A stretch of 64,000 bases of DNA, from assembly GCF_003334315.1 (NCBI RefSeq), contig NZ_QOWR01000010.1. One strand, given 5' to 3'. Positions 1 to 23,023 of this stretch are shown one piece after another (position 1 is the first letter of the stretch; each line of letters begins with the position of its first letter). Both the position numbers and the translations under genes were made by a program. Under the pieces are notes generated by a model. The model was not told the origin of the DNA. It worked only from the letters and a program-made list of their open reading frames with translations, and did not search any database. The DNA comes from Escherichia coli. GTDB taxonomy: Bacteria; Pseudomonadota; Gammaproteobacteria; Enterobacterales; Enterobacteriaceae.

Positions 1-320
<320 letters not shown>

Positions 321-17622: not shown

Positions 17623-19231
<1,609 letters not shown>

Positions 19232-19503
19232 GTAAAGCGTTGGCACAGTAGCGCAATGTCCCGCTGTGCCAACGACAGGTACAATATATATAATAAACAC
19301 ATAAAACGACTCATGTTATTTTCTGCAATGATAGTTTTACTGTAATTTTCCCTCTTCAGCACTAATGCCTAATAAAATGGCGCGTTCCGCTCACACTTCC
19401 ACTTATTAAAGTCGCAAATTCCCAATTATGATAACGCCAGCTTCAAATGACGTATTTTGCATGGATTACATATTTACGACATAAATGATAAATGGAGATT
19501 TAT

Positions 19504-21489
19504 ATGAATAACTCTCGGTTATTCCGTTTGAGCAGGATTGTTATTGCGTTAACTGCCGTCAGCGGCATGATGGTAAATACCGCTTACGCGAAAGAGGAAG
19601 CGAAAACCGCCACTCAATATACCCAACAGGTTAATCAGAATTACGCCAAATCATTACCGTTTAGCGATCGTCAGGATTTTGACGATGCCCAGCGTGGATT
19701 TATCGCCCCGCTGCTGGATGAAGGTATTCTGCGTGATGCGAACGGTAAAGTTTACTACCGCGCAGACGATTACAAATTTGATATTAATGCCGCTGCGCCG
19801 GAAACCGTAAACCCCAGCCTGTGGCGTCAGTCGCAGATCAACGGCATTTCTGGCCTGTTCAAAGTCACCGATAAAATGTATCAGGTGCGTGGCCAGGATA
19901 TCTCTAACATTACGTTCGTTGAGGGCGAGAAAGGCATTATTGTTATCGACCCACTGGTGACGCCGCCTGCCGCAAAAGCCGCACTTGACCTTTACTTCCA
20001 GCATCGTCCGCAAAAACCGATTGTTGCCGTTATTTATACTCACAGCCACGCTGACCACTATGGCGGTGTGAAAGGCATTATCTCTGAAGCCGATGTTAAA
20101 TCCGGCAAAGTTCAGGTTATTGCCCCTGCAGGCTTTATGGACGAAGCCATCAGCGAAAACGTGCTGGCGGGGAACATCATGAGCCGCCGTGCGCTCTACT
20201 CTTACGGTCTGTTACTGCCGCACAACGCGCAAGGCAACGTGGGTAATGGCCTTGGCGTGACGCTGGCAACGGGCGACCCGAGCATTATTGCACCGACTAA
20301 AACTATCGTCAGAACTGGCGAGAAGATGATTATCGACGGCCTGGAGTTTGACTTCCTGATGACCCCAGGTAGCGAAGCGCCAGCCGAAATGCACTTCTAT
20401 ATTCCGGCCCTGAAAGCCCTGTGTACCGCCGAGAACGCCACGCATACCCTGCACAACTTCTACACTCTGCGCGGCGCGAAAACCCGCGACACCAGCAAGT
20501 GGACCGAGTATCTGAACGAAACGCTGGATATGTGGGGTAACGACGCGGAAGTACTGTTTATGCCGCATACCTGGCCGGTCTGGGGCAATAAGCATATCAA
20601 TGATTATATTGGTAAATATCGCGATACTATCAAGTACATTCACGACCAGACCCTGCACCTGGCGAACCAGGGCTACACCATGAATGAAATCGGCGACATG
20701 ATTAAGCTGCCGCCTGCGCTTGCCAATAACTGGGCCAGCCGCGGCTATTACGGTTCTGTCAGCCACAACGCCCGCGCGGTGTATAACTTCTATCTTGGCT
20801 ATTACGACGGTAACCCGGCTAACCTGCATCCGTATGGTCAGGTGGAGATGGGTAAACGTTACGTGCAGGCGCTGGGCGGTTCTGCCCGTGTCATCAACCT
20901 GGCGCAAGAAGCGAACAAGCAAGGTGATTACCGCTGGTCGGCAGAACTGCTGAAACAGGTGATTGCCGCTAACCCGGGTGACCAGGTCGCGAAGAATCTG
21001 CAAGCGAATAACTTTGAACAGCTGGGCTATCAGGCCGAATCCGCCACCTGGCGCGGTTTCTACCTGACCGGCGCGAAGGAGCTGCGCGAAGGGGTGCATA
21101 AGTTCAGCCACGGCACCACCGGTTCCCCGGACACCATTCGCGGGATGTCGGTCGAAATGCTGTTCGACTTTATGGCCGTTCGCCTCGATAGCGCGAAAGC
21201 CGCGGGTAAAAATATCAGCCTGAACTTCAATATGAGCAACGGCGATAACCTCAACCTGACGCTGAACGATAGTGTGCTTAACTACCGGAAAACGCTGCAA
21301 CCGCAAGCCAACGCCTCTTTCTACATCAGCCGTGAAGATCTGCACGCCGTGCTGACCGGACAAGCCAAAATGGCGGATCTGGTAAAAGCGAAGAAAGCCA
21401 AAATTATTGGCAATAGCGCGAAACTGGAAGAAATTATTGCCTGTCTGGATAATTTCGATTTGTGGGTGAATATCGTAACCCCAAATTAA
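19504..21489 (+). CDS. yjcS: Secreted metallo-beta-lactamase-fold alkyl/aryl-sulfatase-like protein
   Basis: Start at MNNSRLFRL (661 aa) with signal peptide and metal-binding motif [11 protein letters not shown]. Confidence 0.85.
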
Positions 21490-21497
21490 TGCCACTC

Positions 21498-21536
21498 GCT
21501 TTTGGGGGCGCTGAAGCCCCCAAAAGCATTTATTTT
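21498..21536 (+). terminator. Rho-independent terminator after yjcS
   Basis: gcttttgggggcgctgaagcccccaaaagc hairpin followed by atttatttt. Confidence 0.8.
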
Positions 21537-21697
21537 AAAAATATATACAGCCAATTAATAAATAAAATATATAAGTTATGAATGCGGTGGCTGAATAAAG
21601 CTATTTTTATTCATCAAGAAAATAGCCATACTGACGCATTCAATGGATATTGATATTCACTACAGATATTGTTCGCAGCAGACAGGATGTATTTAAT

Positions 21698-21973
21698 ATG
21701 CCAACAGTTCTCTCTCGCATGGCGATGCAACTCAAAAAAACAGCCTGGATAATTCCCGTCTTCATGGTTTCGGGATGCTCATTATCTCCGGCAATCCCGG
21801 TGATCGGCGCTTATTATCCCAGCTGGTTTTTCTGCGCCATTGCCAGCCTTATTTTGACGCTCATCACGAGGCGAGTTATTCAGCGGGAAAATATCAATCT
21901 GGCATTTGTCGGAATTATTTATACCGCCCTTTTTGCTCTCTACGCCATGCTGTTCTGGCTGGCATTTTTCTAA
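21698..21973 (+). CDS. ytcA: Small membrane lipoprotein (91 aa), AaeX-like partner of the efflux pump
   Basis: ATG at 21698 (MPTVLSRMAMQLKKTAWIIPVFMVSGCSLSP...) with lipobox VSGC and two hydrophobic segments. Lies immediately upstream of mdtN. Confidence 0.75.
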   Translation: MPTVLSRMAMQLKKTAWIIPVFMVSGCSLSPAIPVIGAYYPSWFFCAIASLILTLITRRVIQRENINLAFVGIIYTALFALYAMLFWLAFF

Positions 21974-21991
21974 TCTATTTGAGACGCGCTC

Positions 21992-23023
21992 ATGGAAAGT
22001 ACGCCGAAAAAAGCTCCTCGCAGTAAATTCCCTGCTCTGTTAGTGGTTGCGTTGGCGCTGGTTGCCCTTGTTTTCGTTATCTGGCGCGTAGACAGTGCGC
22101 CATCAACTAATGACGCTTACGCATCAGCAGATACCATTGATGTGGTGCCGGAAGTCAGCGGTCGCATTGTAGAACTGGCGGTCACCGACAACCAGGCGGT
22201 GAAACAGGGCGATTTGCTGTTCCGCATCGACCCGCGCCCGTACGAAGCCAATCTGGCGAAAGCTGAAGCCTCCCTCGCGGCGCTGGATAAGCAAATTATG
22301 CTCACCCAGCGTAGCGTTGACGCGCAACAGTTTGGTGCCGACTCGGTTAATGCCACGGTAGAAAAAGCCCGTGCCGCCGCGAAACAGGCCACAGATACAT
22401 TACGCCGCACCGAGCCATTACTGAAAGAAGGTTTTGTCTCAGCGGAAGATGTTGACCGTGCAAGAACGGCGCAGCGCGCCGCAGAAGCGGATCTTAATGC
22501 CGTATTGTTACAGGCGCAGTCAGCCGCCAGCGCCGTCAGCGGCGTGGATGCATTAGTTGCCCAGCGTGCGGCGGTCGAAGCGGATATTGCCCTGACCAAA
22601 CTGCATCTGGAAATGGCGACCGTTCGCGCGCCGTTTGATGGCCGGGTCATTTCCCTCAAAACCTCCGTCGGGCAATTTGCTTCTGCCATGCGCCCTATTT
22701 TTACCCTAATCGACACTCGTCACTGGTATGTGATCGCCAACTTCCGCGAAACCGATCTGAAAAATATTCGCTCAGGTACACCCGCAACGATTCGCCTGAT
22801 GAGTGACAGCGGCAAAACCTTCGAGGGTAAAGTGGATTCGATTGGCTACGGCGTGCTACCGGATGACGGCGGCCTGGTGCTGGGCGGCCTGCCGAAAGTG
22901 TCTCGTTCTATTAACTGGGTCCGCGTTGCCCAGCGTTTTCCGGTCAAAATCATGGTCGATAAACCTGACCCGGAAATGTTCCGCATCGGCGCTTCGGCAG
23001 TCGCTAATCTTGAGCCGCAATAA
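21992..23023 (+). CDS. mdtN: Membrane fusion protein (HlyD/EmrA-like) of the MdtNOP efflux system
   Basis: 343 aa with N-terminal TM anchor and coiled-coil-rich periplasmic domain. Confidence 0.9.
   Translation: MESTPKKAPRSKFPALLVVALALVALVFVIWRVDSAPSTNDAYASADTIDVVPEVSGRIVELAVTDNQAVKQGDLLFRIDPRPYEANLAKAEASLAALDKQIMLTQRSVDAQQFGADSVNATVEKARAAAKQATDTLRRTEPLLKEGFVSAEDVDRARTAQRAAEADLNAVLLQAQSAASAVSGVDALVAQRAAVEADIALTKLHLEMATVRAPFDGRVISLKTSVGQFASAMRPIFTLIDTRHWYVIANFRETDLKNIRSGTPATIRLMSDSGKTFEGKVDSIGYGVLPDDGGLVLGGLPKVSRSINWVRVAQRFPVKIMVDKPDPEMFRIGASAVANLEPQ

Follow-up and report, generated by a model that had tools for sequence, protein, structure and literature searches.

The closest described relatives of YjcS are alkylsulfatases of the metallo-beta-lactamase (MBL) fold, the type III sulfatases, of which SdsA1 of Pseudomonas aeruginosa (PA0740, PDB 2CFU) is the founder. 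According to the cited literature, P. aeruginosa grows on SDS by means of SdsA1. SdsAP from Pseudomonas sp. S9 (4NUR) is thermostable, and primary alkyl sulfates, SDS included, are its reported substrates; it is the closest solved relative of YjcS outside entry 4PDX, which is YjcS of Escherichia coli K-12 itself. Pisa1 from Pseudomonas sp. DSM6611 (2YHE/4AV7) is an inverting sec-alkylsulfatase, ie it acts on secondary alkyl sulfates, and its mechanism has been reviewed as one in which a Zn2-activated water is used and a His protonates the sulfate (PMC3920027). Specificity varies in the family (secondary alkyl sulfates for Pisa1, primary ones for SdsA1 and SdsAP) despite a conserved active site. 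Among enterobacteria, YraS of Yersinia ruckeri is an MBL-type alkylsulfatase with a signal peptide, like YjcS. YraS degrades SDS, yet resistance to SDS depends on AcrAB-TolC and does not require YraS. It has 708 residues, its nearest relatives are cyanobacterial or Thiocystis proteins, and it is not an orthologue of YjcS.

The K-12 protein has been named more than once. Entry 4PDX is called 'Putative alkyl/aryl-sulfatase YjcS', and the RefSeq product name for the MG1655 gene is 'linear primary-alkylsulfatase'. The title of Liang et al. 2014 (Protein Sci 23:1442) reportedly says only 'likely an alkylsulfatase'. In three papers that cite it (PMC6107682, PMC10340364 and PMC9426430), Liang et al. 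2014 is credited with the YjcS structure, and the SDS activity of K-12 YjcS is attributed to it as well. No growth phenotype on SDS like that of P. aeruginosa SdsA1 was found for E. coli in the sources consulted.

The yjcS gene analysed here lies in a 64,000-nt stretch of E. coli DNA (the window). A reading of that stretch made from its letters alone (the sequence-only reading) had described a secreted SdsA1-type enzyme and had called its substrate not established. For activity in vitro that is out of date, given the SDS activity as cited, the 4PDX structure and the RefSeq name; for the physiological substrate it stands. Our main reading, to which we give a probability of roughly 0.85, is that yjcS is a single-gene unit encoding a Sec-exported, periplasmic, binuclear-zinc primary alkylsulfatase.

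The window allele

The gene, its ribosome-binding site and its neighbours are as follows.

19504..21489, plus strand: yjcS coding sequence, from the open reading frame call, the K-12 match and the annotation of identical strains
19494..19497, plus strand: Shine-Dalgarno GGAG, 6 nt before the ATG at 19504, invariant across genera
18302-19231: alsK, upstream of yjcS
21698-21973: ytcA, a small gene between yjcS and the pump genes
21992-23023: mdtN, after ytcA and followed by mdtO and mdtP

The reading frame encodes 661 amino acids, from the ATG at 19504 to a TAA at 21487-21489 (stop included). An in-frame ATG at 19492, four codons upstream, would add MEIY and is without a ribosome-binding site. 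The start at 19504 was taken as the right one because GGAG is found 6 nt before it and because the RefSeq annotation of strains that are 100% identical uses the same start.

Compared to b4083 of E. coli K-12 MG1655, the coding sequence is 98.3% identical at the nucleotide level (33 differences), and the two proteins are equal in length and share 655 of their 661 residues. The six changes, from K-12 to the window, are A19V, N28Y, A35T, T183A, D603N and G638S, and none of them is at a ligand. The first two fall in the signal peptide, while T183A is at a non-ligand x position inside HxHxDH, where A, T, V and I are all found as family variants. Entry 4PDX matches residues 30-661 with four substitutions. 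Near-identity and an equal position in the order alsK - yjcS - ytcA - mdtNOP identify the gene as the orthologue of b4083; the locus, neighbours, spacer lengths and terminator are those of the K-12 gene. Several complete E. coli genomes match the 7 kb around yjcS at 100% identity, and the gene is annotated there as 'alkyl sulfatase YjcS'. The coordinates and the name yjcS in the sequence-only reading were thus correct. Its placing of the gene between the allose operon and an efflux pump was right for alsK on the upstream side; the direct downstream neighbour is ytcA, which it did not mention. For yjcS, the sequence, the structure and an in vitro activity had been described before, and there is nothing unusual about the copy in the window, which is an intact allele.

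It is very improbable that yjcS is a decaying relic, functionless in the window strain. Such a view could draw on IS1 insertions in the yjcS genes of the near-identical strains RCAD0514 and SY3626, on truncated forms of 608-616 amino acids in the protein database, and on a laboratory deletion that is tolerated. Against this, the 661-residue frame of the window is intact with every catalytic residue, and other genera conserve the ribosome-binding site, the signal peptide and the terminator. Purifying selection is seen even where E. coli alleles are very divergent (dN/dS about 0.1, no stops), and 5345 of 5426 complete E. coli genomes carry yjcS at full length. What the interrupted copies in otherwise identical strains and the surviving deletion strains do indicate is that yjcS is dispensable under many conditions.

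Domains, zinc ligands and sulfate pocket

Three Pfam domains were found in the protein.

19891..20568, plus strand, residues 130-355: metallo-beta-lactamase catalytic domain, PF00753 (Lactamase_B), E = 6e-27
20677..21093, plus strand, residues 392-530: alkyl-sulfatase dimerisation domain, PF14863 (Alkyl_sulf_dimr), E = 2e-56
21118..21483, plus strand, residues 539-660: alkyl-sulfatase C-terminal SCP2-like domain, PF14864 (Alkyl_sulf_C), E = 2e-36

This is the three-domain layout of the MBL-fold (type III) alkylsulfatases. YjcS gave full-length matches to SdsAP 4NUR (E = 3e-214), 7TL5 (E = 8e-207) and SdsA1 2CFU (E = 1e-182), as well as to Pisa1 4AV7/2YHE, and the alignments to characterised members span about 630-650 residues. 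In SdsAP and 7TL5 the three domains, the Zn ligands and the sulfate-pocket residues are identical to those of YjcS; SdsAP comes from a different genus and its sequence is clearly diverged along the whole alignment. The architecture of SdsA1 is also that of YjcS, at a lower similarity than that of SdsAP. The three domains and the full-length match to 2CFU confirm the SdsA1-type, MBL-fold family named by the sequence-only reading.

The HxHxDH-containing motif lies at residues 179-188. In SdsA1 it reads HAHADH, with Ala at the x position as in the window allele, where K-12 has T183. When YjcS was aligned to the solved enzymes all seven Zn ligands were present, namely H180, H182, D184 and H185 (encoded at nt 20041-20058), E291, E310 and H355. 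These correspond to the His, His, Asp and His of HxHxDH, two Glu and another His given in the SdsAP structure paper (PMC5426288). The metal motif proposed from the sequence is thus in place, and the alignment, which might have revealed a lost metal ligand, kept all seven.

Pisa1 shares the fold and the binuclear zinc site with YjcS, although one of its Zn ligands is Asp where YjcS has Glu, as do SdsA1 and SdsAP (PMC5426288). The residues H317, N318, T321, R323, R328 and Y416 are likewise all present in YjcS; the first five are within the MBL domain and align with Pisa1 at equal residue numbers. The Asn/Thr/Arg/Arg/Tyr pocket is said to have been given its sulfate-binding roles by Knaus et al. 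2012. Conservation was followed through 56 aligned homologues, which were drawn from species-representative genomes and reach down to 42% identity. In all of them H182, D184, H185, E291, E310, H355, H317, R323, R328 and Y416 are invariant. In a Bacillales subgroup Gln takes the place of the first-His Zn ligand, the other six ligands being those that do not vary.

HxHxDH is common to alkylsulfatases and beta-lactamases, and weak beta-lactamase and glyoxalase II matches, all far under the cut-offs of their models, were obtained with residues 119-223. Membership of the class B metallo-beta-lactamases was nevertheless rejected on the curated NCBIfam cut-offs (the class B core model gave 27.7 bits where 100 are required, the subclass B1 model 23.2 where 200 are). 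In addition YjcS has two extra, alkylsulfatase-specific domains, and it has Glu where true beta-lactamases have His and Cys as ligands, a feature described for SdsA1 and SdsAP (PMC5426288). The chance that YjcS is a metallo-beta-lactamase or some other MBL hydrolase, and not a sulfatase, is negligible.

Predicted export

19504..19590, plus strand: Sec-type signal peptide, residues 1-29, predicted cleavage between AYA and KE, after Ala29

The N-region of the signal peptide has 11 residues, including three Arg, and the hydrophobic core has 13, with a 9-residue Kyte-Doolittle maximum of 2.59. In the cleavage region (NTAYA before the cut, KEE after it) Ala occupies both -3 and -1. A twin-arginine motif and a lipobox Cys were looked for at the N-terminus of YjcS and neither was found. 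These Sec-type features and the predicted site agree with the signal peptide claimed earlier.

All enterobacterial orthologues keep an AxA-type signal peptide, and the signal-like sequence at the N-terminus of SdsA1 aligns with that of YjcS. Bacillales homologues are without a signal peptide, so export is not universal among MBL-fold alkylsulfatases. The features of the signal peptide, its retention in the enterobacterial orthologues and the start of the crystallised construct 4PDX at K30 together lead us to predict that YjcS acts in the periplasm. The precursor, bearing a Sec signal peptide, would be cleaved after Ala29 and the mature enzyme set free there.

Terminator

21498..21536, plus strand: intrinsic terminator, 12-bp stem and 6-nt loop, then ATTTATTTT

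The stem (21498-21527) begins 8 nt past the stop codon and consists of 12 perfect pairs, 8 of them G-C. Its free energy is -25.3 kcal/mol (z = -5.3), and none of 200 shuffled sequences folds as well. A G+C-rich hairpin downstream of the stop codon with a U-tract directly after it is predicted to act as an intrinsic terminator. At the equal position Salmonella, Kluyvera, Citrobacter, Pluralibacter and Superficieibacter have a hairpin of unrelated sequence (-18 to -25 kcal/mol), which in most of those five genera is followed by a T-rich stretch. That the position is kept while the sequence is unrelated argues that termination there is selected. The strong terminator that the sequence-only reading had assigned to yjcS is therefore well founded, both in its stability and in its conserved position. 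No Rfam families were found in 19100-22100, save for a chance sub-threshold match on the terminator hairpin.

Published resistance mutants bear on the same question. In these, mdtOP came under the als promoter only by way of an 8.9-kb deletion that ran from alsR through mdtN and included yjcS. That requirement fits, indirectly, an insulation of yjcS from the pump genes. We propose that yjcS would form a single-gene transcription unit, with its own promoter region in the spacer that follows alsK and its own intrinsic terminator.

Upstream region and regulation

The alsK-yjcS spacer is 272 nt long (19232-19503) and starts with an als-specific hairpin. The elements distinguished in it are listed below.

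19239..19273, plus strand: inverted repeat GTTGGCACAG-N15-CTGTGCCAAC just past the alsK stop, -22.6 kcal/mol, no T-tract
19266..19294, plus strand: sigma-70-like GTGCCA-17-TATAAT, matching 10 of 12 consensus positions, from a scan
19359..19395, plus strand: conserved blocks GCACtAATgCCTAAT (19359-19373) and CTCACA (19390-19395), from the cross-genus alignment
19403..19432, plus strand: candidate promoter TTATTA-18-TATGAT, read by eye from the alignment, its -35 below the scan threshold

With this hairpin the als operon ends on its 3' side; within it lies TGGCAC, a hexamer like the -24 element of sigma-54 promoters. The hairpin belongs to the surroundings of yjcS and not to the gene itself. It is found only in als-carrying Escherichia and is absent from O104:H4, which is without als. 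The sigma-70-like sequence at 19266-19294 was rejected as the main promoter, since its -35, which lies inside this hairpin, is found neither in strains without als nor in other genera.

Ten upstream regions from six genera were aligned. Apart from the two blocks listed, TTATGATAAC (19426-19435) and the ribosome-binding region are conserved across genera, and TATGAT of the candidate at 19403-19432 is kept in nine of the ten sequences. TTATTA-18-TATGAT is the likeliest promoter, and its weak -35 suggests a dependence on an activator. The blocks GCACtAATgCCTAAT and CTCACA are candidates for activator or regulator sites. A CRP site around CTCACA was considered and rejected: in Salmonella arizonae 18 of the 22 consensus positions are matched by eye, and the left half-site is unconserved in E. 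coli and other genera.

The sequence-only reading had seen no obvious regulator. It is correct that no regulator gene is adjacent, but published in vitro SELEX has given three candidates, SutR, RpoN and NtrC. In genomic SELEX the RpoN holoenzyme and NtrC bind the alsK-yjcS spacer in vitro, with confirmation by gel shifts, and yjcS is among the in vitro SELEX targets of the sulfur-utilisation regulator SutR (YdcN). A search of 19232-19503 for the canonical sigma-54 sequence TGGCAC-N5-TTGCW gave no plus strand match with three or fewer mismatches; the same search picked up its positive control, the known fdhF promoter (26668). The nearest sigma-54-like sequence, TGGCAC-AGTAG-CGCAA at 19241, was discarded, its -12-like GCA being one base too close. 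The zraP, pspG, hyc and ast genes are sigma-54-dependent, and in cusS mutants in LB yjcS changed together with them. The SutR, RpoN, NtrC and cusS data are hints only as to how yjcS is regulated. For control by CysB or Cbl no evidence was found.

Linkage to the pump genes

The order yjcS-ytcA-mdtN-mdtO-mdtP-fdhF is kept in Escherichia, Salmonella, Kluyvera, Citrobacter, Pluralibacter and Superficieibacter. On the upstream side the neighbour varies: most Escherichia have als, Salmonella has phnP, O104:H4 has an rpiB remnant and EHEC has the OI167 island. An order and orientation that stay constant in six genera while the upstream neighbour changes could mean that YjcS, the YtcA lipoprotein and the MdtNOP pump form an envelope module against amphipathic sulfate esters or xenobiotics, combining periplasmic hydrolysis with export, in which case YjcS would not be a stand-alone scavenger. 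We consider this improbable. In each genus examined a strong terminator parts yjcS from ytcA, the more distant homologues (67% identity or less) are never beside MdtNOP-like genes, and in one Citrobacter, which retains yjcS and ytcA, most of mdtNO is gone. Synteny within the family can also be plain vertical inheritance. Although a functional linkage is conceivable, shared ancestry is the simpler explanation for genes that a terminator separates, and the single-gene unit is the reading we retain.

Divergent alleles and the choice of substrate

A yjcS with no more than 83-85% DNA identity was found in 174 of 5357 E. coli genomes (dS 0.68-0.78, dN/dS about 0.1). The type of K-12 and the window and the type of E2348/69 differ in about 12-14% of the protein (dS about 0.7-0.8), a distance nearly equal to that between either type and Salmonella. 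In the genomes with the divergent yjcS the flanking alsK, ytcA and mdtN are 96-99% identical, and the break points are at the edges of yjcS. The yjcS gene of O104:H4 is a mosaic.

The natural substrate of YjcS may be some other sulfate ester, eg a secondary alkyl or aryl sulfate or a host- or diet-derived sulfated lipid or steroid, with SDS cleaved as a side activity. We regard this as unlikely, although it has points in its favour. SDS is man-made, the difference in specificity between Pisa1 and SdsA1/SdsAP arose with the active site conserved all the same, and two types of enzyme as far apart as those in E. coli (about 13% in sequence), both under purifying selection, would fit different specificities. 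The SDS activity in the cited literature, the RefSeq name and the reported hydrolysis of primary alkyl sulfates by SdsAP, the closest solved relative, point the other way, and primary alkyl sulfates are retained here as the substrates of YjcS.

It may also be that E. coli maintains at least two deeply diverged yjcS types. If these differed in substrate range and the linkage to ytcA-mdtNOP were functional, YjcS would be a niche-adaptive enzyme for sulfate esters in the periplasm, kept polymorphic by selection or by repeated import of alleles, and would not be a housekeeping SDS hydrolase. This seems to us improbable.

Proposed mechanism and role

By analogy with Pisa1 and SdsA1, the chemistry of YjcS may be outlined as follows. 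The mature protein, a type III alkylsulfatase of the MBL fold with three domains, would be a homodimer, and two zinc ions would be held by the seven ligands given above. A zinc-activated water would attack the alkyl sulfate ester, and H317, with the pocket formed by N318, T321, R323, R328 and Y416, would hold and protonate the departing sulfate. The products would be an alcohol and free sulfate, and the substrates primary alkyl sulfates, SDS among them.

The most likely use of such an enzyme would be the supply of sulfate from alkyl sulfate esters in the periplasm, with the removal of detergent incidental. A sulfur-scavenging role of this kind is in keeping with the place of yjcS among the SELEX targets of a regulator of sulfur utilisation.

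As a discovery yjcS matters little, since it has been named, its structure has been solved and an enzyme activity has been assigned to it. Handles on the role of YjcS and on the switch that controls it are given by the in vitro hints (SutR, RpoN and NtrC), by the blocks conserved upstream and by the allele dimorphism.

Results and discussion

The order and orientation of yjcS, ytcA, mdtNOP and fdhF are the same in six enterobacterial genera (window 21698-26500; loci L006-L013, L019, L026 and L067 around yjcS homologues in other genomes). In Citrobacter sp. wls619, yjcS and ytcA are retained and mdtN and mdtO are mostly gone. The als operon upstream of yjcS is an insertion specific to Escherichia; it is missing from O104:H4 and Salmonella, and in EHEC the OI167 island takes its place (PMC10128022).

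IS1A lies inside yjcS in two E. coli strains, RCAD0514 and SY3626_hybrid, which are elsewhere 100% identical to the window. Therefore yjcS is sometimes inactivated in the lineage of the window.

Within E. coli, yjcS exists as two deeply split alleles, and the divergence is limited to the coding sequence. The divergent alleles (E2348/69, CLSC36 and O104:H4) have 83-85% nucleotide and 86-88% amino acid identity to the window allele, with a dS of 0.68-0.78 and a dN/dS of about 0.1. Their neighbours alsK, ytcA and mdtN are 96-99% identical to the window. The O104:H4 gene is a mosaic, diverging in the 5' third only. By identity class, 105 genomes fell at 99% or above, 3608 at 95-99%, 1470 at 90-95% and 174 at 80-90%. 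The divergent and K-12 types of YjcS are nearly as distant from each other as both are from Salmonella (84-85% amino acid identity), and E. whittamii has a protein of 98% identity.

Divergent yjcS alleles, counterparts of window 19504-21489
L003 4001-5986, E2348/69 yjcS
L004 4001-5986, O104:H4 yjcS
L005 4001-5986, CLSC36 yjcS

Upstream of yjcS, at 19359-19435, the blocks GCACAAATACCTAAT, CTCACA and TTATGATAAC are conserved from Escherichia to Superficieibacter, with no match to any known binding site. A CRP-like site across the CTCACA block (18/22 positions) is found in Salmonella but not in E. coli. The inverted repeat 3' of alsK contains TGGCAC followed by GCA, at a spacing one base shorter than that of a sigma-54 promoter. 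This repeat may account for the binding of RpoN holoenzyme that was published from in vitro work and placed between alsK and yjcS. On the other side of the gene, nested inverted repeats sit directly upstream of ytcA, where they may form part of the region that controls ytcA-mdtNOP. Two elements of fdhF, both already known, served as positive controls. Rfam also matched seven copies of a naRNA4/REP-type repeat in the window (44-320, 29670-29853 and 40388-40459), three of them in tandem at its extreme start.

Intergenic and control features of the window
19239-19273, inverted repeat, perfect 10-bp arms, 15-nt loop
21579-21642, nested inverted repeats in the AT-rich yjcS-ytcA spacer, TGAATGCG...CGCATTCA and GCTATTTT...AAAATAGC
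26668-26683, sigma-54 promoter-like element upstream of fdhF, TGGCATAAAAGATGCA
27147-27201, fdhF selenocysteine insertion element, Rfam SECIS_2, 87 bits
47698-47838, sRNA sraL, Rfam, 153 bits

The signal peptide is absent in 25 of the 56 aligned YjcS homologues, every one from Bacillales (L028-L031, L033-L042, L045-L047, L050-L054, L058, L060 and L062). In the same 25 proteins QxHxDH replaces the zinc-binding motif HxHxDH, and Gln replaces Asn318 of the sulfate pocket. The Bacillales homologues thus look like a putative cytoplasmic subfamily, in which a pair of first-shell or second-shell residues is altered.
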